From contig QPGO01000306.1 in assembly GCA_008632985.1 (NCBI GenBank), forward strand, positions 1-63,969: a stretch of DNA of 63,969 nucleotides, in the 5' to 3' direction. The position numbers and the translations under genes were made by a program. Below, in pieces: positions 13,254 through 44,699 of the stretch. Positions within the stretch are counted from its first letter, which is position 1; every line of letters starts with the position of its first letter. This DNA is from Psammoneis japonica (lineage: Eukaryota). Under the pieces are notes generated by a model, which saw only the letters and a list, made by a program, of their open reading frames with translations, did not search any database and was not told the DNA's origin.

Positions 13254-13305
13254 TGATGTGCTGTCTCCCCATGCCTTGTCCAGTTGACGACCAGCAGTGT
13301 CTTGA

Positions 13306-15642: not shown

Positions 15643-15783
15643 TGTGCAATTTTTTTAGCTTGTTGTTTGTGCGCATCAAAGGAACAGTCAAAGCCATTGT
15701 TGTTGCATTGTGCACCAGGGCCCTGCTGCTGTTGCTCTGCTCTGCTCTACTCTAAAAATCACACACGCAAAACAAGAATCAAA

Positions 15784-17842: not shown

Positions 17843-18252
17843 GATTTTGCTGGCAGTGCAGCACCGGCAGCACAGCTGATGATTGTCAATGATCCATTGT
17901 TTGCAAGTTTTTTGTGTGGTGCTGAAATGCTAAAGAACATGCACATGGATTGGATGTGACCCAGTTGGTTCCCTGTCACATGTTCGACATGCCGCCGCCG
18001 TCTTGCACCATTTCGTGAAGTCGCGTGCGTCATTGTCTTCTGCCTTGTTTTTGAGGCTTGGGGTTTTGGGGGGAAAATTTTTCAACAAAAGGGGGGATCC
18101 CCCAGATGAAAAAGCGGGGGTCCAGATTTTGGAAAGCACTGAGAATGGATGATCAAACAAACCTAGAAAGCTTCAACTGTTGGTGCCTGGACTGACCTGT
18201 CATTGCATGCAAGGAATGGAGACAGTCTCATCTTGTTTGATAGAATTCTTGT

Positions 18253-18400
18253 TTAGTTTTCATTGAAAAAGAAGTTCCTCAGCAGAGAAAAGATGTGCTC
18301 GGCAGCACCAGAAGATGGCTGAACTAAAGCAACGAGGCATGGGAGTGGAGCTGCATGCAGAAGCGGCGGCTTGTCACCGGATGATTCATCTGCAACAGGC
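18253..18400 (-). pseudogene. hAT-like transposase C-terminal dimerisation fragment
   Basis: LVALVQPSSGAAEHIFSLL resembles the hAT PxSSAxxERxFS motif; lies in a decayed TpA-poor block (about 18060-20880). Confidence 0.4.
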
Positions 18401-20885
18401 GCATCTTCCACCGTCACATTGTTTTCATTGTCTCTTGTCTCCGTGCTGTGTTGCAACTTGCAACTCACCACTTGCTGCAAAATGGCACACTGCGTGCTGC
18501 GCATGATGCACTCACAACCCAGGTCTGCCAGACACAAACAAACTGCCCCCCCCTGCTCCCCCAAAACCCTTGAGCCCATGTGTCAAGGCTTGTTCTTGTC
18601 TGCAAAACAAAATGCTGTGTTGTGCATTGCCCATCAGTGCAGCTCAGGATCTCACATCATGGTTGTTCCATCGCCCTGTCAGAGAAAGCAAACTTGTGCC
18701 CTCCAACCTTGTAGAATGCCATCTTGTGCATGGTTGGAGAGTGCACTTGCACTTGACTTGATGGCAACTGAGGAGATTCTCTGCCATTGGTTGTCTCATG
18801 GTCATGCCACAGCCACAAGATTCAAAAACAGCTTCAGAGTTGAAATTGGTTCAAAGACAAAAGTGAGAATTGGCGTGGCAAAACAAAAAGCATTGGCAAC
18901 AATCATCAAAAACACAGCCACAACAGTCGTGCGGTGCTCCAAACCAAAAGAGCTCACATGGAAGGGTGCCACAAAAAAAGTGCAAGCAGGAGCAGAAGGA
19001 TGCATTGTTTTTGCTTTTGTGCTGAAAAACACAACAACAAAAGCAAGGCTTCTTTCTGTTTTGTCCTTTCCTCTTTTCCAGGCTGCTGCTCTCATTGTGG
19101 CCAAGCACTGACGAGGAGCAGGTGACAAGGTTGTTGGGTTGGTGGGTGGGTCACAGCTCATGGTGTGGTGCTGGCAGCCATGCAGCAGGCTGCACAAAGG
19201 ATGCAGAGATGACCATGGGCTCCAGCTCTGCAAGGTGCAAGAGGGGGCACAAGGGTGCTTGCATGGAGTGTGGTGAGCTCTTAGAAACTCACAATGAAAC
19301 TGCAGTCTCTGGTGGTGAGTGCGCAAGTTGGCCAATTTGTCTGCTGTGCACCTGCTGACATGGTGAAATGCAAACTGAGTTTGCAAAGCGCTGGTGGCAG
19401 CTCAGGGAAGTTGTGTTGTTCCAAGACCAAATGGTCACCTTGTGCAATCCTGGGCCAATCATCAGGACAAAGATGCTGCAGCACCCTGGTCTGCTGGTCA
19501 GGCACAAGACATGCTGGTTCTAGCTCAGGGGTGAGCAAGCAAGGTGGTCAAGCAATCTGTGCCTCATGGCAGTGCAAGGGCCGGCCAAGGGCCAAATTGA
19601 TCAACACATGCACATTGACTTGCTCTTTGGCCAAGCAGGGGCCCAAAACTGAGGTGGCCCTGTTTTCCGGTGTTGTGCACATCAAGCAGACTAAAACCTC
19701 CTTCCCAAAACAGCTTGGCAACTGTGCATGCTGCAGGAAAACAAAGATGAAGGTGTGGCAGATTTCACACAAATGCATCATGTTGATGCAAACCTTTCTC
19801 TTTCCGCAAACAATGCCCTGGTGGGAACAAGAGCCAGCGGTTGACAAATCACTGAAGCAAAGCTCAAAACACACAACACGCACCCATCATGATGCAGGCA
19901 AAACAGCTCAAAACCCAAAAAACCAAGAGCAGGCAAGGGCCATTGTCATCTTCTGTTGGTCAGATCTCATTGCACCCTTCTTGATCTGCCAAAAGGCCCC
20001 CACACCAAGAAAAATGGCCAGCTCATTGTTGCTGCGCCTGGCGTTGCCATGATGAGTGCTGGCAATGGCGCAAATGTGCTGGAGGCCATTGTTGCAGCTG
20101 CTGGGGACCCCACCACTTTCACTGCAGTGAGAGCAAACTCACCACATGCCAGCACCAGATGCTTTGCCCTGGATGCTTTGTTGCCCCAGACCAGAGCCAT
20201 GCCATTGTGGCTGGTGGCCACACACAAAATGTGTCCAAAATCACCTTTGCAAGTCTCCAGCCCACAAACTCACATGTGAGCCACCCTCAATTTGCTGCAG
20301 CAATGCACCCATGCACAGCCACAGAGCTGTTTTTTTTTTCCTGCCAGCCCTTTGATGAAGAAGACACAATCATAGAAGTCGTTGTCGCTCCATGGCAAGA
20401 AGAGGCACTGGCGCGAGAGCGCAAAAAAATTGAGCAGAAGCCAATCTTGTGCACCTGACAAACAAGCAGGCAAGGCATGCTTGTGTTGCAACTCCCTGGG
20501 AAGGCGGTCCATTGGGTGTCTTTTGTGAGGCAACGAGGCTGCTCCCCCAGATGTTGCCTTGTGCTGCACGTGTTGTCCTTTGTGCAAAATGTGCCTTTGT
20601 TTTCTGAGGCAACTCTGCCACAGATGGACTGTGCAATCTCGCGGTTGTTTGTTTGGCAGACGATGGTTTCGCTTCTCCATTGTTTGTTTTTTCCTCGTTC
20701 CACGTGGAAGCAGAATGACCAACGATCCTGATCCTAGCTTTGCGAACTAAACTTTGCAGCCTGTTTTAGCCGTTTTCTGGCCTTTTTGGCCTCTTTAGGA
20801 CGTTTTGACGCTTTTAGGCTTTTCTAGAGTGACAACAGTTGTGGCGGTTTGTTGCTGTTTCAGGCTCTTCTGTTTGGATTGCGGA

Positions 20886-21176
20886 TGCCAAGTGGCGCCA
20901 AGCAACAGTGTGAAGCAGCGTTGTAAAGTTGACTGTTGCTAACATTGTGAGAAGAAATGAAAGAGATTCGGCTGCTCCGAAATCTCGTAGAATTAACACT
21001 AAGAAACCGCGTAGAAATGTGAAGAAACAATCTTTCGAGAGGCATCGAGATGTATCGAGAAAGGAGAAGAGGTTTCTAGAAAGTGTCATCGTTGACATCC
21101 TTTTGACACTTTTGACACCAGGTTGACACCCACGAATGAATGTACGAATGAACACAGATGACCGTGACATTCGGCA
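20886..21176 (-). repeat. 3' LTR of Gypsy copy A
   Basis: 291 bp, one of four copies, adjacent to the PPT. Confidence 0.95.
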
Positions 21177-21197
21177 CTCGCTTCCCCAATTGAGACG

Positions 21198-24100
21198 TTA
21201 GAAGACAGGGTGAAGACGGCGGATGTTGATACGTTCAGTGACGTGAGGCGAGCGCTGGATGGTAACGGTTCCATTGGTGTGGACACGTACGATACGGAAA
21301 GGACCATCTTTGGTGTTGAGTTTGCGTTGGATGTCTTTGGTCATAACGAAGACTTGATCGCCGATGTTGTAGTCGCAAGTAAGACGTTTTGCGTTTTCGC
21401 GGAGATTGTTGCGTAGGACATCGCGCTTGCGACGGGTGTTAATCATTTTCCAGTTCGCAAGATAAGTAGCAGAAATGACCATGTCTCGACCGAAGACAAT
21501 TTGTCCGGGAGACGACATAAGGGCAGTATGGTAGGTACTGCGCAAGGCCCATGCAACGGATTGCAAAATTCCATGAATTGTGTCTTCATCATGATCGCGA
21601 GAAGGGAGATCCATCGCACGGAGAGAATCGGCTATCACTTGATGAATACGTTCAACGAACGCGTTGGCTTGAGGATTCTTGATTGTTGTAGGTTTCGGTT
21701 TAACACCATAACTGTAGAGGAGATCTGTAAACTCGGAAGTGAATTCGGAACCGTTGTCATAAATGACAATTTCTGGTCGCGGATAGCGACAAAACCACTC
21801 GCGATCGACGATAAGTGAAATGTCTTCGGACGTTTTGAACTTATAGTTCGCGAGTTCGACCCAACGGGTTGCGACATCAATAATTGAAACGGCTCTGATT
21901 TTGCGATCGACACCATTTTTGTCGGCACACGTCCAGGGACCGAAAAGATCGACTTGAGTTGCCTGCCAAGGTTTATAAGTAGTATCTGGAAGAGGCAATT
22001 CGCCATAGTTTGCCGTAGTACGCTTGGATTTGGAACACGTGCGGCACTTACGGACAAAAGTACGGACTTTCGTCTGCATGTCGCGAATGTAAAAATGTGA
22101 AGCCAAAGTTTGGTGGGTGCGATTAGCACCAGGATGGCAGAGAGTTTCATGGTGCCACCGTAGAACTGCAGGAAAAAGCGTTGGAGGGAGGACAATCTTG
22201 TTCTTGTAAAGGACAATCTGTTTTCCGTTGAACAGTTCGGCTGAGTAGGATTCGGACTTGTCGAGTCGTTGCTGAAGAGCAGAATCTTTTTTCTGATGGT
22301 CGGCGATAATATCGAAAGTAACGGGGAATATTGAAGGATCGATTTCCAACGAAGTCATTTCCTCGTAATCGCTTTGATCGACTTGGACAATAGGATGGCG
22401 ACTCAAAAAATCAGCCACGACATTCTTGTGGCCTGGCAGGTACTCGAAAGAGCAATCGCATTCCTCGAGAAGCAAACGCCAGCGTTTGACGCGTTCTGAC
22501 TTGAATTTGTCAAATGTAAGATTTTTGTGATCGGTAAATAGGCAGCATCGATGACCAAAAAGGATGCTTTTGAAATTTTCGGTCGTTTCCACGAGCGACA
22601 GTAGCTCTTTTTCCATTGTCGTGTAGTTTCGTTGCGCTTGAGATGATTTTCGGCTGTAGAATGCAATTGGCCATTCGCCATCGTCAAAATCTTGAGTAAT
22701 TATTGCACCAAGTTGATAATCACTCGCATCCGGATAGACATTGAAAGGTTGAGAGAAGTCGGGGAATCGGAGGAGGATTTCGCGTGCCATAATTTTTTTC
22801 ATCTGATTGAAAGCTTCCGTGTGGACGTCAGTCCACTTGAATTTGACTTTGTCTGATGACAGCGCAGTTAAGGGCGTAAGAGTGTGGCTGCGTCGGTACC
22901 ACAATTTCTTGTAATAATTCACGAATCCGATGAAACCACGTAATTGTCGACGGTTTTGAGGGCGAGCGAAGCGAAGTGAGGGCAGGATTTTCTTTTTCTG
23001 AGGCTGAACACCTTTTGTAGTCATGGTATAGCCTAAGCAGTCGACGGTCTTGGCGGCAAGATAGGATTCTTCGACATGTGCGTGAAGATTGTTCGCGAGG
23101 AGCCGTTGCAAGACGAGTTCGAGTCGTTGACAGTGATGGTTGAAGTTGTTCTTGGTAAAGAGGATGACATTGTCGATGTAGACTATGATATCTTCCACAT
23201 CATGAAAAATGTCTGTCATGTAAGCTTGAAAAATATCGCTTGCCGGTTTGATTCCTTGCGGTAGGCGGTTGTAGCAATACTTGCCCCACGGCAGGATGAC
23301 ACCGCAGAGTTTTTTTGACTCGTCGTCAAGCACGAAGTGACAGTAGCCTCGGTTGAGGTCCAAACATGTCGCATGGGTAAAGCCGTTCATTTTCCATACG
23401 ACGTCGTCGATAATAGGTAGTGGATATGGATGCCGTTCGAGACACTCGTTGAGTTTCCGTAAATCGGATAAGAAACGGATACCACCGCTTTTCTTTGATC
23501 GAAAAAGACAGGGTGCGCCCCAAGGAGAGTGAAGTTTGCGCGTAATAACATCGATTTTTTCCAATTCATCCACTTCTTTGCGAGCCATGGGATATAACGC
23601 TTGCGGAATAGTGTAAGCTTTCGCACAGCATGGACGCGATCCTGGTTTCAGGGTCAAATGGACGGGTTTACCGGGTACAGCTCCAAGTGTACCATCGAAT
23701 AATTGCGGGTATCGTCCGAAGAGTTCGATGAGTTGGTGCTGTTGATCGTTATCAAGGTGTTTGCAGCGTAGAACCATGTCGCGATAATTGTGCTTGTCGT
23801 ACGCATTGCTCGTCATACCTCGAACTTGACGGTTGACGGCATTCTGGAAGAACTTGGGTAATTCAGCATCGCCGGGATGAATTGCATTAACTTCGACTTG
23901 GTCGAAAGAGCCCTTGGATCGCATGGATAGGGTAACATCGCCCCACGTGATTGTTTGATGTCGAAAATCAAAAACGAGTCCCATTTCTGTGGCGGTTTTC
24001 TTCCGATGATAACATCGTGTTTTCCTACGGCTTTGTCTTCCACATGAGCATCGACGGAAACCTTCTTGGACGATGCGAAGTCTGGGAACTTCAATGTCAG

Positions 24101-25420
24101 CGTCGCAATCTCGTGTAGATTAACGGTGCTGTAACGGCCTTTAACGGGAACGTCACATTTACGGATTTTGTGAGGAATCCCGCGAAGGGCTGAGCGCTTC
24201 ACAAAATTGCGATTTGCGCCGGTGTCGAGTGGAGCAACACGGAACTTGTGCATTCCAGAATGAGCATCAATCATCTGGACACGCGCTTCCGTGGCAAGAT
24301 TGTCTTCTATTTCGGATTCGATGGAATCGTCTAGAAGAGACGTGACGTCTTCAAAAATGTCGTTGACATCGTCTGACGCGACGCTATCGACATCGTTAGA
24401 AGCGGAGCGACTGGCTTTGGAGTCCACATTATTGTTTTCGACGTTCCGTGTGCGGCTCCGTGTGGGACAGCGGTGTGTCGGCTCGTTTCGAGAGTTATTT
24501 TGTTGATTCGGCGCACTCCGATTTGCGCGGTTCCGCTCATAATTTTCACGTTCACGACGGATGACATTGCACTCTTGACCGTTCGGATGTACAACGCCAT
24601 GGATTGGACATGTTTGTTCACTGTTGTTTTGATTCCTGTTCCTGGTGTCGCGATTTTGGTCGTTGTTCTGGCCGCGACGCGCATTTCGACCGTTGTTGCG
24701 TCGATTCCGATTGTCATTGCGTCTGTTGTCATCGGTAGACCCTTTGTCACCACGTCGTTCCATACGTCGGAGAGTCTCGTAGTGTTGAGCTTGGTCGTTC
24801 AAGTTTAAGTTGCGAAGACGGGCTTTAGTCTGAGTTTCGGCCCATGATCTTGGTCCACATTTTCGAAGGATTACGGACAATTCCGCTTCCGTGAATGACG
24901 GAACTCTTTCGGCGTCATCTTCGGTTGGCGTAGGCATGACATTAATCAACTTATTAAAGCGACGGATGTCATTAACAAATGACTTGACAGTTTGGTTCCT
25001 GGGTTTCTTGAGGCTTTGAAGCCATTCCTTGGCATCAAGGGCAATTTCTCCATCCATGCATTGGAGCAGAAATTCTTCACGACAAGTGTCGAATGTAACT
25101 TGGTCGCGGTTTTCGTATTCGTCTACGACGATTTCCCAGTCGTCTTTTGGTGTTCCGGTCATAAGTCTGGTCACGAGCCGGAAACGTGGCTGTCCTTCAG
25201 CCGCACCGAGATCGTTGACAAGTTCATCGAAGTTTGACCAGAAGGTAAGAACATCTTCCGGTTCAGTTGAAGCTAACTTACGTACCTCGATCGTAGTTTT
25301 AAGCCCATCTGGATCGTCAGGATCAATGGGGCTTTCAAAAGACACGAATTGGTCTTTGCGTCGCTCTTCCTCAGAGCGGTCAGGATGCTCAAGTTCGAAT
25401 GGGCAGTTTTCTGCTGACAT
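21198..25420 (-). pseudogene. gag-pol of copy A with a 1-bp frameshift near 23996-23999
   Basis: ORFs 23813-25420 and 21198-23984; 4 T versus 5 T in copy B at GGCGGTTTT(T)CTTCC. Confidence 0.9.
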
Positions 25421-25493
25421 GTCTGGTCAGGACAATATGATCGGTAGATATATCTCAAGAGAGATAAATAAGTGTTTGGGAGTAAATTTACTA

Positions 25494-25784
25494 TGCCAAG
25501 TGGCGCCAAGTAACAGTATAAAGTAGCGTTGTAAAGTTGACTGTTGCCAATGTTGTGAGAAGAAATGAAAGAGATTCGGCTACTCCGAAATCTCGTAGAA
25601 TTAATACTAAGAAACCGCGTAGAAATATAAAGAAACAATCTTTCGAGAGGCATCGAGATGTATCGAGAAAGGAGAAGAGGTTTCTAGAAAGTGTCATCGT
25701 TGACATCCTTTTGACACTTTTGACACCAGGTTGACACCCACGAATGAATATACGAATGAATATAGATGACCGTGATATTCGGCA
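25494..25784 (-). repeat. 5' LTR of Gypsy copy A
   Basis: 291 bp, upstream of the gag ATG at 25420. Confidence 0.95.
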
Positions 25785-25875
25785 ACGGATCTTCGAGCCT
25801 CACAATTTTGAAGCGTTGCAAACCAGCACAATTTAGGTACATTCTTCCTTCATTTTTCGTTTCAAGTCTTCTACG

Positions 25876-26610
25876 ATGAAGTGTTTTAGCTGCGTTCTTG
25901 TTACCTTGGCCATTTCCCTGGTCCACGGGGAAGGAGATCATGAACACGGTCACCATGATCATTCTTGTGCTTGCGAAGCGCAAGAATTCGGATTTTCGAT
26001 TAACTGCCGCGACCAGGATTCCATGCTGGCAGCCTTATCCGTTCTCCAAGACGCTGACAACAACTGCAAGGCCGACTGCACGTCGGAAATCTGTCACAAG
26101 AACTTCCTCATTGTCAAGTCTCACCACGACTACTGTCTTCACGATGAAGCCCCTGAGCCTCTCGAGGACGGCATTCACTTTTTCGAAGACAGCTGCGAAG
26201 GCTGCGAGATTGGCCGCCGGCCGGATCCCAACCTCCCGGACTGCCCCACTGCATCGTGTAACGACAGCGGCAACGACGCGTGTCAGAGTCTCCTGAATGG
26301 CGGATGCCTCGACAGCTGCAACACCGAAGAGTGTACCAGCAGCTACCGCATTCTCCGTGCTGTCCACGACAACTGTCCAGAGGATACACTTGATCAGATT
26401 GCGGAATCCGGCATTCACGACTTTGAAGAGCCTTGCGAGGAGCACAACTGCAACTCACACTCGGGTGCCGAGGACCTAGCCAAGCAACTCGTTTGTGAAG
26501 AAGATCCAGAACCTCAGGACAACAACTCGGCTGCTCCGGGGTTGGGGTCTGTCGGCTTGTGGGTTCTCTCCTTTGGTGGTGTTATCATGGCTGCGGCTCA
26601 AATGGCCTAA
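25876..26610 (+). CDS. Secreted/surface Cys- and His-rich protein with two internal repeats; putative metal-binding, possible GPI anchor
   Basis: Signal peptide, HEHGHHDH, two C..HD.C..D....E.GIH.FE..C units, hydrophobic C-terminus. Confidence 0.8.
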   Translation: MKCFSCVLVTLAISLVHGEGDHEHGHHDHSCACEAQEFGFSINCRDQDSMLAALSVLQDADNNCKADCTSEICHKNFLIVKSHHDYCLHDEAPEPLEDGIHFFEDSCEGCEIGRRPDPNLPDCPTASCNDSGNDACQSLLNGGCLDSCNTEECTSSYRILRAVHDNCPEDTLDQIAESGIHDFEEPCEEHNCNSHSGAEDLAKQLVCEEDPEPQDNNSAAPGLGSVGLWVLSFGGVIMAAAQMA

Positions 26611-26666
26611 ATCCTATACATTTTTGTTGTAGTGTTTTAGTAAAGAATAGAGTCGATGTCACAGTA

Positions 26667-27250
26667 GGGCCAGTACTTATGTTTTCTTGTAGCAATAGCT
26701 CAAAACAAAGAGTGGTAATCCATTCTGGAAATAGTGTACCAGCATCAGCGTGACGAGTTCCGCGGCTAACTACCGGTATAGTCCATCGTGTGTTACACCT
26801 TTCTCAATCCCTCAAGCTACACCAAATGGCTTGCTGTAATGTTGGAGTAAAGAATTGAGACGATGTCATCGTTGGGCCAGTGCTAAATTGTCTCTACTAG
26901 GTAGTAGCAATAGCCCAAAGCAAAGAGCGGTACTCCATTCCCGAAAATAGTGTATGAGCATTATCAAGACGATATTCGAGAAACTTGAAATATACAAGAA
27001 AAAAATGAGATCAACAAGGAAAATAAAAATAACTACACACTACGACGTTCACAATCAAGCAGCGACGCTGTTGCGAATAGGTGATTTGGGGCCAGTGCTA
27101 AATAGCAATACCCCAAGGCAACGAGCGGTGTTAATCCATTCCCGAAAATCTATCGAGACGAGTAAGAAACTTTAAATATCGCTACAAAATGAGATCAGAC
27201 CACAAACGAGGTCCCTACGACGTTCACAAATAATCAAGCAGCGACGAGTC
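26667..27250. repeat. Degenerate ~210-bp tandem repeat (3 units)
   Basis: GGGCCAGT..TAGCAATA..ATCCATTC at about 26667, 26874 and 27089; CTACGACGTTCACAA..TCAAGCAGCGACG occurs twice. Confidence 0.7.
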
Positions 27251-27763
27251 TACAGGACGATATTTTTCATTTGCTACCGAAAAAGCATTGTCGCATCTTT
27301 TCGAGCCAGTCGATTGTAGACTTGTGGATGCAGCATGTCGCGGACACTTGCAATGTTGTGGTTTTGAATCGCCTTGCGAATGGCCGTGCTGGATTCGTTG
27401 TTGGAGAGGATGCTTCCCCTAATGCAAACGGCTTGACAATTTTTGGGTCGCCGACTTGTAGTACCTGGTCGTTCTACAACCACGCACCATGGCTGTTGAT
27501 ACAATTGACATTTCTCCGCATGATCTGCTCCGCACACATAGTTCACTGACACGTTCGGGCCAAGTGCTTCTAACAAATGGTTTCGCACGTCGGGAAAGTC
27601 CATCAGTCGTGGTTGTGAAATCTCCCAATCGTCCACAATGATACGTTCCGTAGCTACGAGTCGGCAGAGTTCTACTTTGGTGGAATTGTCGAGACTACCA
27701 AATGGCTTGCGTTGACTCCACCGAGCATCACTTGGCGATAGTATGCAACCCAAGACGGCCGTA

Positions 27764-28054
27764 TGCCAAGTGGCGCCAAGTAATAGTATAAAGTAGCGTT
27801 GTAAAGTTGACTGTTGCTAATATTGTGAGAAGAAATGAAAGAGATTCGGCTACTCCGAAATCTCGTAGAATTAACACTAAGAAACCGCGTAGAAATATAA
27901 AGAAACAATCTTTCGAGAGGCATCGAGATGTATCGAGAAAGGAGAAGAGGTTTCTAGAAAGTGTCATCGTTGACATCCTTTTGACACTTTTGACACCAGG
28001 TTGACACCCACGAATGAACACACGAATGAACATAGATGACCGTGATGTTCGGCA
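27764..28054 (-). repeat. 3' LTR of Gypsy copy B
   Basis: 291 bp TGCC..GGCA. Confidence 0.95.
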
Positions 28055-28075
28055 CTCGCTTCCCCAATTGAGACG

Positions 28076-31000
28076 TTAGAAGACAGGGTGAAGACGGCGG
28101 ACATTGATACGTTCAGTGACGTGAGGCGAGTGCTGGATGGTAACGGTTCCATTGGTGTGGACACGTGCGACACGGAAAGGACCATCTTTGGTGTTGAGTT
28201 TGCGTTGGATGTCTTTGGTCACAACGAAGACTTGATCGCCGATGTTGTAGTCGCAAGTAAGACGTTTTGCGTTTTCGCGGAGATTGTTGCGTAGGACATC
28301 GCGTTTGCGACGGGTGTTAATCATTTTCCAGTTCGCAAGATAAGTGGCAGAAATGACCATGTCTCGACCGAAGACAATTTGTCCGGGAGACGACACAAGG
28401 GCAGTGTGGTGGGTGCTGCGCAAGGCCCATGCAACGGATTGCAAAATTCCATGAATTGTGTCTTCATCATGATCGCGAGAAGGGAGATCCATCGCACGGA
28501 GAGAATCGGCTGTCACTTGATGAATGCGTTCAACGAACGCGTTGGCTTGAGGATTCTTGATTGTTGCAGGTTTCGGTTTAACACCACAACTGCAGAGGAG
28601 ATCTGCAAACTCGGAAGTGAATTCGGAACCGTTGTCATAAATGACAATTTCTGGTCGCGGATAGCGACAAAACCACTCGCGATCGACGACAAGTGAAATG
28701 TCTTCGGACGTTTTGAACTTGCAGTTCGCGAGTTCGACCCAACGGGTTGCGACACCAACAATTGAAACGGCTCTGATTTTGCGATCGACACCATTTTTGT
28801 CGGCACACGTCCAGGGACCGAAAAGATCGACTTGAGTTGCCTGCCAAGGTTCATAAGTAGCATCTGGAAGAGGCAATTTGCCACAGTTTGCCGCAGTGCG
28901 CTTGGATTTGGAACACGTGCGGCACTTGCGGACAAAAGTGCGGACTTTCGTCTGCATGTCGCGAATGTAAAAATGTGAAGCCAAAGTTTGGCAGGTGCGA
29001 TTAGCACCAGGATGGCAGAGAGTTTCATGGCACCACCGTAGAACTGCAGGAAAAAGCGTTGGAGGGAGGACAATCTTGTTCTTGTAAAGGACAATCTGTT
29101 TTCCGTTGAACAGTTCGGCTGAGTGGGATTCGGACTTGTCGAGTCGTTGCTGAAGAGCAGAATCTTTTTTCTGATGGTCGGCGACAACATCGAAAGTAAC
29201 GGGGAACATCGAAGGATCGATTTCCAACGAAGTCATTTCCTCGTAATCGCTTTGATCGACTTGGACAATGGGGTGGCGACTCAAAAAATCAGCCACGACA
29301 TTCTCATGGCCTGGCAGGCACTCGAAAGAGCAATCGCACTCCTCGAGAAGTAAACGCCAGCGTTTGACGCGTTCTGACTTGAATTTGTCAAATGCAAGAT
29401 TTTTGTGATCGGCAAACAGGTAGCATCGATGACCAAAAAGGATGCTTTTGAAATTTTCGGTCGTTTCCACGAGCGACAGTGGCTCTTTTTCCATTGTCGT
29501 GTAGTTTCGTTGCGCTTGAGATAATTTTCGGCTGTAGAATGCAATTGGCCATTCGCCATCGTCAAAATCTTGAGTGGTTGCTGCACCAAGTTGATGATCA
29601 CTCGCATCCGGATAGACATTGAAAGGTTGAGAGAAGTCGGGGAATCGGAGGAGGATTTCGCGCGCCACAATTTTTTTCATCTGATTGAAAGCTTCCGTGT
29701 GGACGTCAGTCCACTTGAATTTGACTTTGTCTGATGACAGCGCAGTTAAGGGCGTAAGAGTGTGGCTGCGTCGGTGCCACAATTTCTTGTAATAATTCAC
29801 GAACCCGATGAAACCACGTAATTGTCGACGGTTTTGAGGGCGAGCGAAGCGAAGTAAGGGTAGGATTTTCTTTTTCTGAGGCTGAATACCTTTTGCAGTC
29901 ATGGCATGGCCTAAGCAGTCGACGGTCTTGGCGGCGAGATAGGATTCTTCGACATGCACGTGAAGATTGTTCGCGAGGAGCCGTTGCAAGACGAGTTCGA
30001 GTCGTTGACAGTGATGGTTGAAGTTGTTCTTGGTAAAGAGGATGATATTGTCGATGTAGACTATGATATCTTCCATATCATGAAAAATATCTGTCATGTA
30101 AGCTTGAAAAATATCGCTTGCCGGTTTGATTCCTTGCGGTAGGCGATTGCAGCAATACTTTCCCCACGGCAGGATGACACCGCAGAGTTTTTTTGACTCG
30201 TCGTCAAGTACGAAGTGATGGTAGCCTCGGTTGAGGTCCAAACATGTCGCACAGGTAAAGCCGTTCATTTTCCATACGACGTCGTCGATAATAGGTAGTG
30301 GATATGGATGCCGTTCGAGACACTCGTTGAGTTTCCGTAAATCGGATAAGAAACGGATACCACCGCTTTTCTTCGATCGGAAAAGACAGGGTGCGCCCCA
30401 AGGAGAGTGAAGTTTACGCGTAATAACATCGATTTTTTCCAATTCATCCACTTCTTTGCGAGCCATGGGATATAACGCTTGCGGAATAGTGTAAGCTTTC
30501 GCACAGTATGGACGCGATCCTGGTTTCAGGGTCAAATGGACGGGTTTACCGGGTACAGCTCCAAGTGTGCCATCGAATAATTGCGGGTGTCGTCCGAAGA
30601 GTTCGATGAGTTGGTGCTGTTGATCGTTATCAAGGTGTTTGCAGCGTAGAACCATGTCGCGATAATTGTGCTTGTCGTACGTGTTGCTCGTCATACCTCG
30701 AACCTGACGGTTGACGGCATTCTGGAAGAACTTGGGTAATTCAGCATCGCCGGGATGAATTGCATTAACTTCGACTTGGTCGAAAGAGCCCTTGGATCGC
30801 ATGGATAGGGTAACATCGCCCCACGTGATTGTTTGATGTCGAAAATCAAAAACGAGTCCCATTTCTGTGGCGGTTTTTCTTCCGATGATAATATCGTGTT
30901 TTCCTACGGCTTTGTCTTCCACACAAGCATCGACGGAAACCTTCTTGGACGATGCGAAGTCTGGGAACTTCAATGTTAGCGTCGCAATCTCGTGTAGATT

Positions 31001-32299
31001 AACGGCACTGTAACGGCCTTTAACGGGAACGTTACATTTACGGATTTTGTGAGGAATCCCGCGAAGGGCTGAGCGCTTCACAAAATTGCGATTTGCGCCG
31101 GTGTCGAGTAGAGCAACACGGAACTTGTGCATTCCAGAATGAGTGTCAATCATCTGGACACGCGCTTCCGTGGTAAGATTGTCTTCTACTTCGGATTCGA
31201 TGGAATCGTCTAGAAGAGACGTGACGTCTTCAAAAATGTCGTTGATGTCGTCTGACGCGACGCTATCGACATCGTTAGAAGCGGAGCGACTAGCTTTGGA
31301 GTCCACATTGTTGTTTTCGACGTTCCGTGTGCGGCTCCGTGTAGGACAGCGGTGTGTCGGCTCGTTTCGAGAGTTATTTTGTTGATTCGGCGCATTCCGA
31401 TTTGCGCGGTTCCGCTCATAATTTTCACGTTCACGACGGATGACATTGCACTCTTGACCGTTCGGATGTACAACGCCATGGATTGGACATGTTTGTTCAC
31501 GATTGTTTTGATTCCTGTTCCTGGCATCGCGATTTTGGTCGTCATTCTGGCCGTGACGCGTGTGTCGACCGTTGTTGCGTTGGTTCCTATTGTCATTGCG
31601 TCTGTTGTTGTCGGCAGACCCTTTGTCACCACGTCGTTCCATGCGTCGGAGAGTCTCGTAGTATTGAGCTTGGTCGTTCAAGTTTAAGTTGCGAAGACGG
31701 GCTTTAGTCTGAGTTTCGGCCCATGATCTTGGTCCACATTTTCGAAGGATTACGGACAATTCCGCTTCCGTGAATGACGGAACTCTTTCGGCGTCATCTT
31801 CGGTTGGCGTAGGCATGACATTAATCAACTTATTAAAGCGACGGATGTCATTAACAAATGACTTGACAGTTTGGTTCCTGGGTTTCTTAAGGCTTTGAAG
31901 CCATTCCTTAGCATCAAGGGCAATTTCTCCATCCATGCATTGGAGTAGAAATTCTTCACGACAAGTGTCGAATGTAACTTGGTCGCGGTTTTCGTATTCG
32001 TCTACGACGATTTCCCAGTCGTCTTTTGGTGTTCCGGTCATAAGTCTGGTCACGAGCCGGAAACGTGGCTGTCCTTCAGCCGCACCGAGATCGTTGATAA
32101 GTTCATCGAAGTTTGACCAGAAGGTAAGAACATCTTCCGGTTCAGTTGAAGCTAACTTACGCACCTCGATCGTAGTTTTAAGCCCATCTGGATCGTCAGG
32201 ATCAATGGGGCTTTCAAAAGACACGAATTGGTCTTTGCGTCGCTCTTCCTCAGAGCGGTCAGGACGCTTAAGTTCGAATGGGCAGTTTTCTGCTGACAT
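28076..32299 (-). CDS. Single-ORF Gag-Pol polyprotein (1407 aa)
   Basis: Gag CPIH..H....EC, protease LLDTGA, RT LDL/RLPQG/YIDN, RNase H DASD..EKE..DH..ADFLSR, integrase H..H..C..C, D,D(35)E, GPF. Confidence 0.95.
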   Translation of the reverse strand: MSAENCPFELKRPDRSEEERRKDQFVSFESPIDPDDPDGLKTTIEVRKLASTEPEDVLTFWSNFDELINDLGAAEGQPRFRLVTRLMTGTPKDDWEIVVDEYENRDQVTFDTCREEFLLQCMDGEIALDAKEWLQSLKKPRNQTVKSFVNDIRRFNKLINVMPTPTEDDAERVPSFTEAELSVILRKCGPRSWAETQTKARLRNLNLNDQAQYYETLRRMERRGDKGSADNNRRNDNRNQRNNGRHTRHGQNDDQNRDARNRNQNNREQTCPIHGVVHPNGQECNVIRRERENYERNRANRNAPNQQNNSRNEPTHRCPTRSRTRNVENNNVDSKASRSASNDVDSVASDDINDIFEDVTSLLDDSIESEVEDNLTTEARVQMIDTHSGMHKFRVALLDTGANRNFVKRSALRGIPHKIRKCNVPVKGRYSAVNLHEIATLTLKFPDFASSKKVSVDACVEDKAVGKHDIIIGRKTATEMGLVFDFRHQTITWGDVTLSMRSKGSFDQVEVNAIHPGDAELPKFFQNAVNRQVRGMTSNTYDKHNYRDMVLRCKHLDNDQQHQLIELFGRHPQLFDGTLGAVPGKPVHLTLKPGSRPYCAKAYTIPQALYPMARKEVDELEKIDVITRKLHSPWGAPCLFRSKKSGGIRFLSDLRKLNECLERHPYPLPIIDDVVWKMNGFTCATCLDLNRGYHHFVLDDESKKLCGVILPWGKYCCNRLPQGIKPASDIFQAYMTDIFHDMEDIIVYIDNIILFTKNNFNHHCQRLELVLQRLLANNLHVHVEESYLAAKTVDCLGHAMTAKGIQPQKKKILPLLRFARPQNRRQLRGFIGFVNYYKKLWHRRSHTLTPLTALSSDKVKFKWTDVHTEAFNQMKKIVAREILLRFPDFSQPFNVYPDASDHQLGAATTQDFDDGEWPIAFYSRKLSQAQRNYTTMEKEPLSLVETTENFKSILFGHRCYLFADHKNLAFDKFKSERVKRWRLLLEECDCSFECLPGHENVVADFLSRHPIVQVDQSDYEEMTSLEIDPSMFPVTFDVVADHQKKDSALQQRLDKSESHSAELFNGKQIVLYKNKIVLPPTLFPAVLRWCHETLCHPGANRTCQTLASHFYIRDMQTKVRTFVRKCRTCSKSKRTAANCGKLPLPDATYEPWQATQVDLFGPWTCADKNGVDRKIRAVSIVGVATRWVELANCKFKTSEDISLVVDREWFCRYPRPEIVIYDNGSEFTSEFADLLCSCGVKPKPATIKNPQANAFVERIHQVTADSLRAMDLPSRDHDEDTIHGILQSVAWALRSTHHTALVSSPGQIVFGRDMVISATYLANWKMINTRRKRDVLRNNLRENAKRLTCDYNIGDQVFVVTKDIQRKLNTKDGPFRVARVHTNGTVTIQHSPHVTERINVRRLHPVF

Positions 32300-32372
32300 G
32301 TCTGGTCAGGACAATGTGATCGGCAGACACATCTCAAGAGAGATGAACAAGTGTTTGGGAGTAAATTTACTG

Positions 32373-32663
32373 TGCCAAGTGGCGCCAAGTAACAGTATAA
32401 AGTAGCGTTGTAAAGTTGACTGTTGCTGATGTTGTGAGAAGAAATGAAAGAGATTCGGCTACTCCGAAATCTCGTAGAATTAATGCTAAGAAACCGCGTA
32501 GAAATATAAAGAAACAATCTTTCGAGAGGCATCGAGATGTATCGAGAAAGGAGAAGAGGTTTCTAGAAAGTGTCATCGTTGACATCCTTTTGACACTTTT
32601 GACACCAGGTTGACACCCACGAATGAATGCACGAATGAACATAGATGACCGTGATATTCGGCA
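32373..32663 (-). repeat. 5' LTR of Gypsy copy B
   Basis: 291 bp TGCC..GGCA. Confidence 0.95.
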
Positions 32664-32932
32664 CCGTACCTTGGTTCTCAAAGTGCTTCGCCGCCAATTC
32701 AAGCATGTTCGTGTGGCCAACATGGACTGGATTCATGGAGCCCGTTGTAAACAGCACCACGGCTGGCTTCTCTAGATCATGGCGTTTGCACTTTTCAATC
32801 AAGTTTTGCATGTTATTGCTCTTGCATTACAAGCGAAAGTGGTGCGAACAGGTGGGCGAACAGGTAGGCGAACAGTGAATGAATCGAAACGTGCAAAATT
32901 ACAAAACTTCAAACTGCGATCTGCGCGCGCAC

Positions 32933-35171
32933 CACCCCTGTGGTAGGGGAGCTGTGTGTGTGTGCGTGGTTGTGCGCGCACGGCTTCGCCGTGCGTTGAG
33001 TTTTAATGTTAACATCCACACGCATGTGTGTGTTCCACAAGTAAAAATTCCCATTCCACAGCTCCCCTAAAACTCTAACCACCAAAAACCGAGGGGTCGG
33101 AAGCGCACTTTCGGGAGCTCTTTTTCTCCGCACAAAAAACACGCGTTTCGTCGACTCGACCATGATGATGCCTCGTGGTTCTTCCCCATCGCCTTCCCAG
33201 GACGCCGATCCTACTGACGCCATTGCCAATGACACTGATGCAACAGGCAATGTCATCATTCCGGTTCTCGTGGGTGTGATGCGTACAAAATAAGATGCTA
33301 CAAACTCACACTGTTGTTTGCACGCTCCACCGCCTCCCACAGATGCTGTCACGAATTCCAACGCCGCACCTGCGTTTTGGCCCCCTAGCATGCCCGATGC
33401 TGTTGCTCCTGCCCTTGCTGCCATCACTCCTGCCCTCACTGCCGCAGGTGCTGTTGATGCTGTCATTGCATTTTGCCAATGACGTCCACAATGAAGTGCC
33501 AATGACTCGCACTTCTTTCATTCTCGCCCCACCGCCTCCCACAGATGCTGTCACGAATTCCAGTGCTGCACCTGCGTTTCGGCCCCCTGGCATGCCCGAC
33601 ACTGTCACTCCTGCCCTCACTGCCGCAGGTGCTGTTGATGCTGTTGTTGTCTTTTGCCAACAACGTCCACAACGAAATGCTTGTAACTCACACTTCTTTC
33701 ATTCTCGCCCCACTGCCTCCCACAGATGCCATCATGAATTCCAATGCCGTGCCTGCGTTTCGGCCCCCTGGCATGCCCGACACTGCCAATCCCACCCTTG
33801 CTGCTGCAGTTGCTGTTGATGCTGTTGTTGTTTTTGCTTTGGAAGGAACACAATGGATGACGGATGACGGCGGACCAGGAAACCCACGCAACCACGGCCT
33901 GCTGATGGACGACACATCAATGGACATGAATGGTGCCTCTTGGTTGGCTCTCGAGTGCAGTCTAATCTTTGGAACATGCAGACACAGCATGCAGCTCTCT
34001 GTGGGTTAGAAACCTGACAACAATTGGATGGCAGGCATGCTTTCACAGTTTTTTAGTTTCAAGTTGGAGAGGTCAGCGAATTGGCATTTGTTTGCAGGTG
34101 ACTTGGCAAGGTTTCAAATGGTGCATGTGACTTGGACACTGCTCTGTTTTCCAGGACCAGGTCATTGTGTGCAATTCCACAAGAGGCCACTCTCGCCGTT
34201 TGAGTTCTGCATGTGATGTGCAACATGCTGTTTTTGCATGTTGCTAAAATGGAGGCAGGCAGCAACGTGCTTTTGGCAAACACTCACTGTGTTTGTCACT
34301 GTCAGACCTTCAAAACTGGTGCCTTGTCGACAGCCATGCTGCCACTTTGCATGCCGGCACCTTCTCTGCCCGCACTCCATTGGCTGCGTCCTCCTTCACA
34401 TGTTGCTGCGGTTCATCTTGACACTTGTTGTTGGCTCCGATTGGTTCCGCTGGGCTCTGGGTGAGTCTCAATCACCTCCAGATGGACAAGGTTCTGCTTG
34501 GGAACAATTGTCCTGAGAAAGGTTGTCACCATGCCTCCTGTCATAGATGCTCCTCTGCCACGCCCACTGAACCTTGACGTCGGTTTGTTGCTTTTGTTTT
34601 TTGACCTGGTTTCGGAGCTGCACCCCAGACCGTTTGAGAGAAGGCTCATCAGTGCCTTCCACAACACGGCGATGCGAACGAGAATCCAGTTTTTCCAGGG
34701 ACGCAATGACAGGAGCAGACCAATCACGGGGCGCTGTGTTTGTGTTTCAGGCACAGGATCTGGTGAACAGAACCCCAAATCCTCCGGATGGCAAATCGGC
34801 TGTGTTTGGGTAACGACAGCGGGTGCAATGGCACCGGCCATTGCAGGAGGGACTGCCGCATCAGACATGGCAGGCAGGGATGCGTCAGGTGGTGTGGGGG
34901 ACGAAGAACGGGAGGTCGTCATGGTCGAGTCGACGAAACGCGTGTTTTTTGTGCGGAGAAAAAGAGCTCCCAAAAGTGCGCTTCCGACCCCTCGGTTTTT
35001 GGTGGTTAGAGTTTTAGGGGAGAATATGGTTCAGGATTTTTCCTGCTACTATTAGCATTTGTGTACAAATGCATAAATAAATGTGAGGACATTTATATAA
35101 AAATATAATGAATAAGATATAAACTGCCACGTAACCATGACATCACCATATTCTCCCCTACCACAGGGGTG
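32933..35171. mobile_element. Non-autonomous TIR DNA transposon (9-bp TSD, Mutator-like)
   Basis: Perfect 19-bp TIR CACCCCTGTGGTAGGGGAG (32933-51, 35153-71), TSD CGCGCGCAC (32924-32, 35172-80), inner inverted repeats of more than 100 bp starting 33062 and ending 35022. No transposase seen. Confidence 0.88.
33300..33845. repeat. ~190-bp tandem repeat x3 inside the TIR element
   Basis: CCACCGCCTCCCACAGATGC..GAATTCCA..CATGCCCGA recurs at about 33327, 33529 and 33709. Confidence 0.8.
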
Positions 35172-39233: not shown

Positions 39234-39689
39234 TGTGAATGGATGGCTTTGCTTTGCATGCAGCAGTCGACCAGAGGTGATGCTGTTGTTGTTGTTCATG
39301 CTGGAGCCTTCGCGCGTCGTCGTCGTGCGGTGTGTTGGTGCAGTTGGTGGGAGTTGCACAATGACCCCACCCGCGTTTTGTACTGATTTTCTACGACACA
39401 TAGTGTCCGTTAAATGCTGCGAAAACACGTAGAATTCTACGGAAGAAGTCATAACTTGTGTTATAAGATATTTAAGACCTAAATAAGATATATCAAATTT
39501 CTACTGAAAGATTGCGTTCAGTTCTTAGTATGTAGAAGTCATACAACGATCACTTCTCATTCCTTTTTCCGGAAAAGGGTGTCATGCTGTACGATTTCGA
39601 ACCACTCAACGCAATGTCAATCAATTGTACTCCGCATCAAGCAATTTATCAATCAAGCAATTGATGTAATCTTCTGCCAGCGACCTGAC

Positions 39690-44385: not shown

Positions 44386-44699
44386 ATGCACAATGTTGTT
44401 TAGAGTTTTTTACGTTGGGGTTGAAAGAATCCCATTTTTCAACAGTAGCTAGGGCGTCTCTCCTACTTTTACTTTCCGTGTCTATTGAAATCACACCTGC
44501 TTCCACAAAACCTTGCCAAAGAACCACGCAGCGTGTGCCGGATAAGCACGAATCATGATAGGACCCAAGCCGCGAAAGAGACCCAGAAAGCCACGCTCGC
44601 GATCGATGCGAAATCATTTCTGGAAAGCAGCTGCCAAGAATCATGACATCCCGTCGAGATCGGACGCTGTTTTTTGGCAAGTCAAATGGCATGGCAATT

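Follow-up and report, generated by a model that had tools for sequence, protein, structure and literature searches.

Loss of TpA dinucleotides from integrated Gypsy retrotransposons of the diatom Psammoneis japonica

Retrotransposon copies in the genome of the diatom Psammoneis japonica carry mutations that fall overwhelmingly on TpA dinucleotides, which have become TpG or CpA. We are confident that a TpA-erasing hypermutation is at work. The fuller statement, that integrated retrotransposon copies are hit by targeted TpA hypermutation, with an adenine deaminase as the preferred chemistry, is in our view probable, while adenine deamination as the specific chemistry is, taken by itself, quite possible but somewhat doubtful. 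The data described below show directly in what context and direction the changes occur, and that they postdate integration, fall equally on both strands, come in patches, stay confined and eventually reach saturation. That the process is a defence is how we interpret its outcome.

Two Gypsy copies and the context of their differences

The window, by which we mean the whole stretch of DNA analysed, is contig QPGO01000306.1 of the P. japonica assembly GCA_008632985.1 (positions 1-63,969). Its minus strand carries two Ty3/Gypsy LTR retrotransposons, A and B, that are 96.6% identical; the span 21198-32299, with which the first-pass annotation dealt, runs from the end of the copy A ORF to the start of the copy B ORF. 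Copy A (20886-25784, minus strand, 4899 bp) has its 3' LTR at 20886-21176 and its 5' LTR at 25494-25784, and a 1-bp deletion near 24000 divides its gag-pol between two ORFs, 21198-23984 and 23813-25420. Copy B (27764-32663, minus strand, 4900 bp) has its 3' LTR at 27764-28054, its 5' LTR at 32373-32663 and an unbroken gag-pol ORF of 1407 aa (P0001, 28076-32299). The LTRs of both are 291-bp direct repeats of the form TGCCGAA...CTTGGCA, ending in TG...CA, and 5-bp target site duplications (TSDs) flank both elements, exact in B (CCGTA, 27759-27763 and 32664-32668) and with a single TA to TG mismatch in A (GCGGA at 20881-20885 on the low side, ACGGA at 25785-25789). The Ty3/Gypsy Pol order of RT, RNase H and integrase is present in both; in B the domains span residues 643-798 (RVT_1), 863-987 (RT_RNaseH), 1079-1134 (Integrase_H2C2) and 1151-1250 (rve), the last scoring 27.7 bits, below the cut-off of 32.6, as against 40.3 bits in A.

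Aligned over 4913 columns, A and B show 167 differences: 159 transitions, 7 transversions and 1 indel. Steps between TA and TG or CA account for 136 of the 159 transitions, where composition predicts 20.7% (binomial p 1.7e-68), and only 9 are of the CpG type. A table of Y-R steps gives 62 TA sites lost in B only, 35 lost in A only, 123 kept, and 19 double hits, at which a single dinucleotide reads CA in one copy and TG in the other. Given that only ∼9 double hits are expected under independence, some sites are hotter than a simple model permits. CpG is largely intact in these young copies (358 of 367 sites, CG observed/expected ratio (o/e) 1.1-1.5), whereas TpA is already down by a quarter to a third (TA o/e 0.43-0.6).

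We count ∼54 TA-loss events in copy A and ∼81 in copy B. Setting these events over ∼258 TA sites, and 30 non-TA substitutions over ∼4400 positions, TA sites are changed ∼30-50 times more often per base than other sites. The losses are balanced between the strands (28:26 and 45:36) and do not run by strand (runs tests, z -0.8 and -0.45). They favour an adenine followed by a pyrimidine, with 97 of 524 T-A*-Y sites changed against 30 of 408 T-A*-R sites (odds ratio 2.9, p 7e-7). Along the elements they are patchy (chi-square p 1.6e-4 in A, 1e-6 in B); the most heavily hit patch of B (27914-29664, minus strand, from the integrase end through the 3' part) has a TA o/e of 0.19-0.31, compared with ∼0.5 in the corresponding part of A, and between element positions 3250 and 4750 of B 41 of 65 TA sites are gone. 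The LTRs of copy A are unequal too, with 9 TA left in the 3' LTR and 20 in the 5' LTR.

Polarity of change and its consequences for Pol

Among the four LTRs there are 21 variable positions, every one a TA-type transition, and the 17 singletons comprise 15 TA losses and 2 TA gains (binomial p ∼0.002). The script itself returned 12:2 with 3 'other'; these three were reclassified by hand as TA losses because the neighbouring base is altered in the sister LTR. Protein outgroups give the same direction. We used 26 outgroup Pol proteins overall and polarised a change when 9 or more of the 12 close outgroups agreed; of the 31 nucleotide changes that qualified, 25 are TA losses, 1 is a TA gain, 2 are CpG changes and 3 are other. 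The minority direction, TG to TA, is seen twice in the LTRs and once in coding sequence. Both data sets thus support the polarity proposed in the first-pass annotation, away from conserved Tyr and Leu.

That annotation quoted eight residue pairs that distinguish A from B, all of which are found in the two copies. Pol codon 694 is Cys (TGT) in A and His (CAT) in B, and codons 717 and 994 are both Tyr in A and Cys in B; outgroups have Tyr at all three, as they do at positions 1090, 1139 and 1238, so Cys or His is not the conserved state among relatives. Codons 798-799 read Tyr-Thr in A and His-Ala in B. At codon 902 (Tyr in A, His in B) Tyr is not invariant, being the residue in only 8 of the 12 close outgroups. 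Leu is ancestral at codons 397 (A Pro, B Leu), 926 (A Ser, B Leu) and 940 (A Leu, B Pro), the outgroups carrying Leu at each.

Where 85% or more of the 26 outgroups share a Pol residue, Tyr is altered in 6 of 15 columns, while there are no changes at Arg (21/21), Gly (23/23), Pro (26/26) or Trp (10/10). In an alignment of 121 relatives, Cys or His occupies 6 of the 15 conserved Tyr columns in copy B and no more than one in each of the other 120. When the codon changes are tabulated, as the annotation had proposed, the non-synonymous share of altered codons is 0.613, close to the 0.645 predicted by neutral TA loss, and the TA-loss changes are therefore not under selection.

Because loss of TA destroys TAA and TAG and makes no new stop codon, reading frames remain open. 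Under a simulated polarity like that of repeat-induced point mutation (RIP), copies A and B acquire on average 11.0 and 6.4 stops (probability of none, 0 and 0.0005), yet neither has any, which upholds the contrast with RIP that had been drawn. The accompanying view, that elements are disabled by missense in an open frame, is correct as an outcome, since TA loss is unable to generate a stop, but needs two qualifications: only copy B has a fully open frame, owing to the 1-bp frameshift in A, and older blocks do gain TGA codons. Four independent tests, namely the LTR quartets, the protein outgroups, the double hits and the stop simulation, agree on change from TA to TG or CA.

Timing, boundaries and older blocks

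Within a single element, the LTRs are distinguished by 15 positions in A and 8 in B, all of TA type; non-TA differences within either pair are nil. A contig from a public sequencing run (of the same or another strain than the assembly) joins 20880 to 25785 and 27758 to 32664, excising each element together with one copy of its TSD. Since this run holds an empty site for both insertions, A and B are polymorphic and young. The empty allele reads T|ACGGA, and thus the low-side TSD of A, GCGGA, has gone from TA to TG at a site 5 bp beyond the LTR. The LTR differences and the TSD change place the TA damage after integration.

Between the elements lies a single-copy spacer of ∼2 kb (25790-27758) that retains 84 TpA (o/e 0.64; 0.51-0.80 in 1-kb windows) and, compared with the empty-allele contig, shows a single difference in ∼85 sites (26743, CA in the window and TA in the contig). 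The linked duplicates are mutated and the single-copy DNA between them is spared, a pattern compatible with a duplication trigger such as that of fungal RIP; the process stops at the element ends and does not spread into the spacer. Host genes have a TA o/e of 0.5-0.8, and host LRR-Roc paralogues show TA-type changes in only 16 of 142 transitions, together with 104 transversions. In 17 LTR-like pairs of related elements on metagenome contigs, TA-type changes make up 9 of 52 transitions, and at 78 metagenome loci related Gypsy elements lack extreme TA depletion (o/e 0.42-1.08), so generality in diatoms is not established.

Older blocks, which contain remains of Copia elements and a dead copy of a Brix gene and fall in gene-poor repeat DNA, make up ∼38% of the window, and nearly all their TpA and CpG has turned into TpG or CpA (TA o/e 0.03-0.1, CG o/e 0.02-0.5). 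Observed over expected counts are 83/827 TA, 299/776 CG, 1450/888 TG and 1244/722 CA in the block at 7600-20500; 25/529 TA, 55/455 CG, 822/413 TG and 1014/583 CA at 44600-52600; 6/126 TA and 15/124 CG at 39600-41600; and 20/90 TA and 75/108 CG in a smaller depleted block at 32800-34400, which includes 181-bp tandem repeats (33424-33785). In these four blocks the excess of TG and CA approximates the deficit of TA and CG, the share of Y-R steps staying at ∼0.24. The block at 44600-52600 contains an old Copia-type LTR element (47192-52776, plus strand) with integrase (49434-50519) and RT (51167-51679) remnants, in which 0 of 12 conserved Tyr and 3 of 18 conserved Arg are kept. The members of its LTR-like pair (47192-47454 and 52506-52776) share 88% identity when compared in purine/pyrimidine space. 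This 12% divergence, compared with 7 transversions per 4913 bp between the young copies, shows depletion to track age.

The Brix-domain pseudogene (15784-17839, plus strand, in pieces 15784-16044 and 17069-17839) is broken by a Copia pol fragment (16198-16869) that has a 133-bp direct repeat on its flanks (16046-16178 and 16836-16968). None of its 3 conserved Tyr is kept (they are now Cys, Cys and His), and 6 of 13 conserved Arg are; the others have become Cys, His, Gln or stop, through the codons TGC, CAT, CAA/CAG and TGA, matching decay of CGN. Two in-frame TGA stand where Arg is conserved, which illustrates that CpG decay in old blocks does produce stops. As this copy is host-derived and sits inside a saturated block, targeting is not strictly confined to transposon sequence.

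Candidate mechanism, rival explanations and known systems

In the mechanism we favour, A:T pairs of the palindromic 5'-TpA-3' would become G:C, so that the read strand changes from TA to TG or CA. Both strands would be targeted equally often, with ∼3-fold efficiency where a pyrimidine follows the A (5'-TAY, as in Tyr codons), and action would come in patches of ∼0.5-1.5 kb that end at element boundaries. Tyr codons would turn into Cys or His, NTA codons for Leu, Ile and Val into Pro, Ser, Thr, Ala or Met, and a first-position A after T would yield Ile to Val and Thr to Ala, the element dying by missense with its frame open. Given time, TpA loss would go to completion and, with slower decay of CpG to TpG or CpA superimposed, leave blocks nearly devoid of TpA and CpG. 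tRNA adenosine deaminases act at U33-A34 and prefer a 5' U or T next to the edited A. A candidate TadA/ADAT2-like deaminase, recruited to silenced repeats, may convert adenine to hypoxanthine, which is read as G, as proposed for the chlorarachniophyte Bigelowiella natans, in which TpA-specific hypermutation of integrated viral DNA has been described (Mettrop et al., 2026, bioRxiv preprint 10.64898/2026.01.13.699255). According to the accessible text of that preprint, mutation-accumulation lines yielded 231 mutations in two regions of integrated viral DNA, 230 of which are A to G or T to C, all at TpA; they arise de novo and in place, intermittently and at ∼1000-fold the background rate; the main target is single-copy; an ADAT2-like deaminase is a proposed candidate only; and ADAR is noted in the Discussion to favour a 5' U or T beside the edited A (10.64898/2026.01.13.699255).

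Since A to G on one strand is T to C on the other, and the two are inseparable in all our data, adenine deamination is indistinguishable from a route through thymine, in which an enzyme such as a TET/JBP-type oxygenase would mark the T of TpA in each strand, for instance as 5-hydroxymethyluracil, with mispairing or faulty repair to follow. The 5-hydroxymethyluracil of dinoflagellate DNA shows a preference for TpA and TpC, and a two-strand mark would suit strand-symmetric changes at a palindrome; the accessible text on B. natans favours adenine deamination, by inference, and we consider the thymine route unlikely. It is also conceivable that no dedicated enzyme is needed, TpA being intrinsically mutable in the silent chromatin of transposons through replication errors or unrepaired damage. 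The depleted blocks are indeed gene-poor repeat DNA in which CpG is decaying too, and the Brix pseudogene is affected without being a transposon. Such passive decay is, however, hard to reconcile with the excess of change at TA over other sites of the same young elements, with LTR pairs free of any non-TA difference, with a spacer left untouched from 5 bp beyond the LTRs, with the contrast between the two LTRs of copy A, or with a process that, in the available B. natans text, is switched on in some lines only; we think it quite improbable.

Editing before integration, in which transposon RNA (by ADAR-like A-to-I conversion) or cDNA is deaminated and the edited copy inserted, would follow a precedent well known for retroelements in animals, and cDNA editing could in principle make LTRs differ. 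Single-strand editing would not be expected to treat the strands equally and interleave its changes, to alter a TSD base outside the element, or to reach a host pseudogene, and blocks ∼95% saturated at TA are too much for one replication cycle; the B. natans changes, moreover, appear in place in cultured lines, as far as the available text goes. We regard this origin as very improbable. Miscalling of modified TpA bases in transposon DNA seems to us highly improbable, even though dense base modification could lead some long-read platforms to make transition errors in particular contexts and the best public run contains only 0.46 of the sampled 31-mers of copy B. Contigs of that run match the depleted flanks with differences at 0/381, 1/1974 and 2/297 bases at a k-mer depth of ∼60, which implies accurate reads; other copies of the family in them show TA-type changes at 25 of 40 listed variants, plus 2 CA/TG doubles; and depletion scales with independent age markers. 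The reverse polarity, which is that of fungal RIP, with C to T at CpA (TpG to TpA when read from the opposite strand), involves the same three dinucleotides, CA, TG and TA, but is effectively refuted here: the polarised changes run the opposite way, TA is depleted rather than enriched in both copies and blocks, CA-versus-TG double hits are impossible by RIP, and the stops it predicts are missing.

Targeted TpA hypermutation would ruin retrotransposon proteins without stop signals, and may be a kind of genome defence. It is possible, and we suggest it only tentatively, that an ancient guided defence that mirrors RIP is common to diatoms and chlorarachniophytes, in which a DNA-acting adenine deaminase, or another enzyme that modifies TpA, is steered to newly inserted repeats with base-pair-sharp boundaries. 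If so, homology, small RNA or chromatin could act as the guide, TpA would be rewritten to TpG or CpA while an insertion is still polymorphic, a large share of the genome would have been silently shaped (as in the 38% of the window), and old transposons would escape annotation, their frames open while their domains fade.

We found no report of a TpA hypermutation signature in diatoms in the literature; it has been reported once before, in the unrelated B. natans as described in the accessible preprint text. That text and our data have in common changes that are almost only A to G or T to C at TpA, yielding TpG or CpA, and their confinement to foreign or selfish DNA in an otherwise normal genome, the Brix pseudogene being the diatom exception. 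Action is uneven in both, by line in B. natans and by patch in the diatom. Elsewhere in the B. natans genome there are clustered windows poor in TpA and rich in CpA and TpG, like those in our window, and reverse transcriptase and DDE domains are over-represented among its low-TpA genes, which we take as a further shared feature. The differences are that B. natans, a rhizarian, mutates de novo in culture, in 186-kb giant-virus and 25-kb virophage inserts, whereas in the diatom, a stramenopile, mutation is deduced from LTR retrotransposon copies. Beyond what the accessible text describes, the diatom shows a TAY preference, polymorphic insertions, changes that stop within a few bases of the LTRs, almost complete exhaustion of TpA (TA o/e 0.03) and parallel erasure of CpG, a term with no occurrence in that text.

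Animal APOBEC3 (C to U, on cDNA) and ADAR (A to I, on dsRNA) also inactivate retroelements through deaminase-type clusters of transitions, but they act on single-stranded cDNA or RNA, before integration and with strand asymmetry, whereas those in the diatom are strand-symmetric, postdate integration and reach a flanking TSD base and a host pseudogene. Methylation-driven decay of silenced transposons resembles the CpG to TpG or CpA change of the old diatom blocks; here, however, CpG loss is slow and secondary, most CpG in young copies being intact. RIP in ascomycetes is similarly fast, restricted to transitions, dinucleotide-specific and directed at selfish or repeated DNA after its entry into the genome, and its action, too, is patchy and eventually leaves blocks of aberrant composition. 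It nevertheless converts CpA to TpA, raising TA, lowering GC and creating many stops, while in the diatom TpA is destroyed, GC rises and no stops are made.

Two Gypsy copies and the differences between them

Targeted, post-integration hypermutation of TpA to TpG or CpA acts on retrotransposons in Psammoneis japonica, a diatom. Our argument begins with two Ty3/Gypsy elements on the minus strand, copy A (20886-25784) and copy B (27764-32663), each with 291-bp LTRs (TGCCGAA...CTTGGCA), a 5-bp target-site duplication and a Pol region in the order RT, RNase H, integrase. Copy B retains an uninterrupted 1407-aa gag-pol frame (28076-32299); copy A, whose frame a 1-bp deletion breaks at codon 474, contains no stop codon when read in that of B. 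Both copies (20886-32663) are unusually rich in CpG, with an observed/expected ratio of 1.1-1.5 against ∼1.0 in host genes. A Gypsy Pol profile compared with the six frames of the window gave no match beyond A and B. Relatives of the elements with a named source belong to Fistulifera, Fragilaria and Epithemia. No close family copies of the Gypsy elements were found in the protein database, where the best relative of B Pol is 57% identical, and internal synonymous sites are consequently not polarised by sister copies.

In a public run, a single contig passes directly from 20880 to 25785 and from 27758 to 32664, so that each insertion is missing precisely, and the empty site of B recurs in a second run of that sample. 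Each of the two is therefore polymorphic or heterozygous and, since the empty sites share a contig, A and B go together on one haplotype or strain while another lacks both.

The alignment of A and B, 4913 columns long, contains 159 transitions, 7 transversions and 1 indel. As many as 136 of the 159 transitions fall at steps that read TA in one copy and TG or CA in the other (TA-type changes), where composition predicts 20.7% (p = 1.7e-68). Among pyrimidine-purine steps, TA persists in A and B alike at 123, is gone from B alone at 62 and from A alone at 35, and a further 19 steps pair CA with TG across the copies; by arithmetic from the counts, TpA bases changed ∼30-50 times more often than the other bases of the two elements. 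The first-pass annotation had singled out eight residue pairs in Pol, several of them conserved Tyr codons turned to Cys or His. All eight are found in A and B, and the pattern and polarity it described extend well past the quoted codons.

An artefact of assembly could in principle write such a signature, but it is unlikely to lie behind this one: the depleted flanks are reproduced in the accurate contigs of the public run, and these contigs show the same kind of variation. Among the 40 variants listed for other family copies in that run, 25 are TA-type, 2 are CA/TG doubles and 2 are transversions. This comparison draws on public-run contigs only, and the share of copy B's sampled 31-mers present in the run (0.46) is uninformative on the presence of the variants particular to A or B. 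As a control, host LRR-Roc paralogues gave 16 TA-type changes in 142 transitions, with 104 transversions. The signature is likewise absent from 17 LTR-like pairs of related Gypsy elements in metagenome contigs (9 of 52 transitions TA-type); several of these terminal repeats match at 100% and could be overlaps left by assembly. None of 78 metagenome loci of related Gypsy elements showed extreme TA depletion; these loci serve as a control on the method, not as evidence that the process is missing from other diatoms.

Direction and properties of TpA loss

That TA is ancestral, as had been claimed from the codons alone, is supported by five concordant lines of evidence. The LTRs provide one, the two LTRs of an element being identical at integration. 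The four LTRs vary at 21 positions, every one a transition at a TA-type step, and at the 17 singletons TA was lost in 15 cases and gained in 2 (a scripted tally gave 12:2 plus three 'other', those three being losses where the sister LTR changed the adjacent base); 15 CpG are kept by all four. Protein outgroups point the same way. Polarising a change only where one copy was matched by at least 9 of the 12 close outgroup proteins, we obtained 31 nucleotide changes, comprising 25 TA losses, 1 TA gain, 2 CpG changes and 3 others, and the lone gain (codon 781) is better read as two losses from GTA. The invariant Tyr columns 694 and 1090 read Cys in one copy and His in the other, and copy B has Cys or His at 6 of 15 conserved Tyr columns, where each of 120 relatives has at most one; Cys/His is thus not the conserved state in relatives. 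Neither copy contains a stop, where simulation of the opposite, RIP-like polarity gave means of 11.0 (A) and 6.4 (B), with a probability of none of 0 and 0.0005, which bears out the earlier contrast with RIP. Lastly, judged against the empty-site allele and the other copy of the target-site duplication, the T|A step just outside the 3' LTR of A became T|G.

Two other accounts of the Pol differences were considered and rejected. The His/Cys pairs might have originated by CpG deamination of Arg CGY codons, but the outgroups have Tyr at these sites, and A and B share 358 unchanged CpG against only 9 CpG-type transitions. The CpG of these young copies is undecayed, which argues that they are not, or not yet, exposed to methylation-driven loss. 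Purifying selection, in turn, might explain why the frames are open. Tabulating the codon changes between A and B, we counted 76 non-synonymous and 48 synonymous (a non-synonymous share of 0.613), where random TA loss predicts 0.645; the share is that of neutral expectation, and conserved residues are hit. The TpA loss in A and B is neutral decay, not selection, and the missense decay described by the first-pass annotation stands.

The changes are spread evenly over both strands (28:26 in A, 45:36 in B), and neither copy shows strand runs or the strand-coordinated clustering that would point to single-strand deamination. A target A followed by a pyrimidine was changed at 97 of 524 sites, compared with 30 of 408 otherwise (odds ratio 2.9, p = 7e-7), and it is because of this TAY preference that Tyr codons are so conspicuous. 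Loss is patchy along the elements (chi-square p = 1.6e-4 and 1e-6): copy A keeps 9 TA in its 3' LTR against 20 in its 5' LTR, and the integrase end of copy B has lost 41 of 65 TA sites, with an rve score under the Pfam cut-off. The process is confined to the elements. The 1969-bp single-copy spacer between them is spared, keeping 84 TA, with one site that differs from the empty-allele contig. There are no non-TA differences within the LTR pairs, and the damage to A and B must have been fast. Adenine deamination would be the leading chemistry, with thymine modification at TpA by a TET/JBP-type oxygenase as its rival; we infer, too, that the process may be guided and may serve defence.

Saturated blocks and their neighbours

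Almost all TpA and the greater part of CpG have gone from four sharp-edged blocks, which cover 38% of the window (∼24.5 kb): ∼7600-20500, ∼32800-34400, ∼39600-41600 and ∼44600-52600. In the last of these, 25 TA are observed against 529 expected and 55 CG against 455, a combined deficit of 904 that is balanced by an excess of 840 TG and CA. Pyrimidine-purine steps make up ∼0.24 of steps in the blocks, as elsewhere in the window, and the host genes between blocks have TA observed/expected ratios of 0.5-0.8 and CG ratios of ∼1.

The blocks are old repeats. An LTR-like pair (47192-47454 and 52506-52776; 88% identity when compared in purine/pyrimidine space) encloses Copia integrase and RT remnants; of the conserved residues of this relic, none of 12 Tyr and 3 of 18 Arg are left. 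Nor does sequence of host origin escape inside a block: a Copia pol fragment (E = 1e-79 to diatom Copia polyproteins) interrupts a dead, hypermutated copy of a Brix-domain ribosome-biogenesis gene (15784-17839, plus strand). In this Brix copy TGA occurs twice, each time at a conserved Arg position. Its three conserved Tyr are all gone (now Cys, Cys and His) and 6 of 13 Arg remain (the rest now Cys, Gln, His, stop and Leu), together with 15 of 15 Phe, 6 of 6 His and 5 of 5 Lys. In the old DNA, then, slower CpG decay has been added to TpA loss. Among 118 block ORFs of at least 90 aa, and 18 long ORFs also searched, Brix was the only credible Pfam domain, and 117 of the 118 were without one.

Several further features were noted. 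A direct repeat of 133 bp, whose copies agree at 100% in purine/pyrimidine space, flanks the Copia fragment in the Brix copy. A TA-depleted block contains two tandem units of 181 bp with 88% identity (33424-33785), with more diverged copies at 33289-33835 (purine/pyrimidine space). Strong A/T skew occurs inside saturated blocks, with T in excess on the plus strand at 8000-16000 and A in excess at 47500-51500 (A 0.31-0.37, T 0.17-0.20). Old retroelements that have A-rich sense strands and lie in opposite orientations would fit these skews; of the two stretches, only 47500-51500 is tied to a Copia relic.

Outside the blocks, two LRR-Roc GTPase paralogues (3-1856 and 3586-7464, both minus strand; ∼83% identical) each contain an 84-bp tandem-repeat array encoding LRR units (906-1709 and 6430-7065), and the longer has a C-terminal TIR domain; for a diatom protein, this architecture resembles that of an immune receptor. 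Right next to a saturated block lies an apparently intact pyrenoid shell gene (53679-54596, plus strand; Pfam DiatomPyrShell, 4e-85), whose match to a diatom family agrees with a diatom host. Low GC in the last composition bin reflects a scaffold gap of 575 N (60305-60879) and no real feature.

Consequences and comparison with known systems

For annotation, LTR-divergence dates of these elements are badly inflated, given that all 23 within-pair LTR differences are TA-type; open reading frames in blocks are no evidence of function, and saturated relics are missed by domain-based annotation. Dinucleotide maps (TA and CG low, TG and CA high, pyrimidine-purine steps constant) offer a cheap way of finding them. 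Model diatoms are genetically editable; should such species show the signature, knock-outs of candidate deaminases or oxygenases would be feasible. Anyone searching for natural DNA adenine editors would have reason to look at the TAY preference and at what appears to be action on double-stranded DNA.

A full-text literature search brought up one relevant paper, a 2026 preprint on Bigelowiella natans (10.64898/2026.01.13.699255), and nothing on TpA hypermutation in diatoms; an apparent lead, PMC9258296, proved unrelated. According to the accessible part of the preprint, two integrated viral regions in mutation-accumulation lines mutate ∼1000-fold faster than the rest, 230 of 231 mutations are A to G or T to C with all 230 on TpA, only some lines are affected, and the genome holds 124 clusters of TpA-poor windows rich in CpA and TpG. 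For the enzyme, its authors go as far as proposing an ADAT2-like DNA adenine deaminase. That part mentions neither diatoms nor stramenopiles nor CpG.

The signature described there matches that of the diatom process, which may accordingly be classed, by analogy, with B. natans-type TpA hypermutation. If real, ours would be the second eukaryotic hypermutation defence that writes A:T to G:C at TpA, in a phylogenetically distant lineage, the first being known only through that preprint. It would then show that ordinary LTR retrotransposons are attacked, not giant-virus inserts alone, and suggest that such a system is widespread among algal lineages. Relative to B. natans as the available text describes it, the LTR-retrotransposon targets, the TAY preference, the base-sharp confinement, the young polymorphic targets and the saturation with co-erasure of CpG are new. 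Set beside fungal RIP, the diatom process is like its mirror image.
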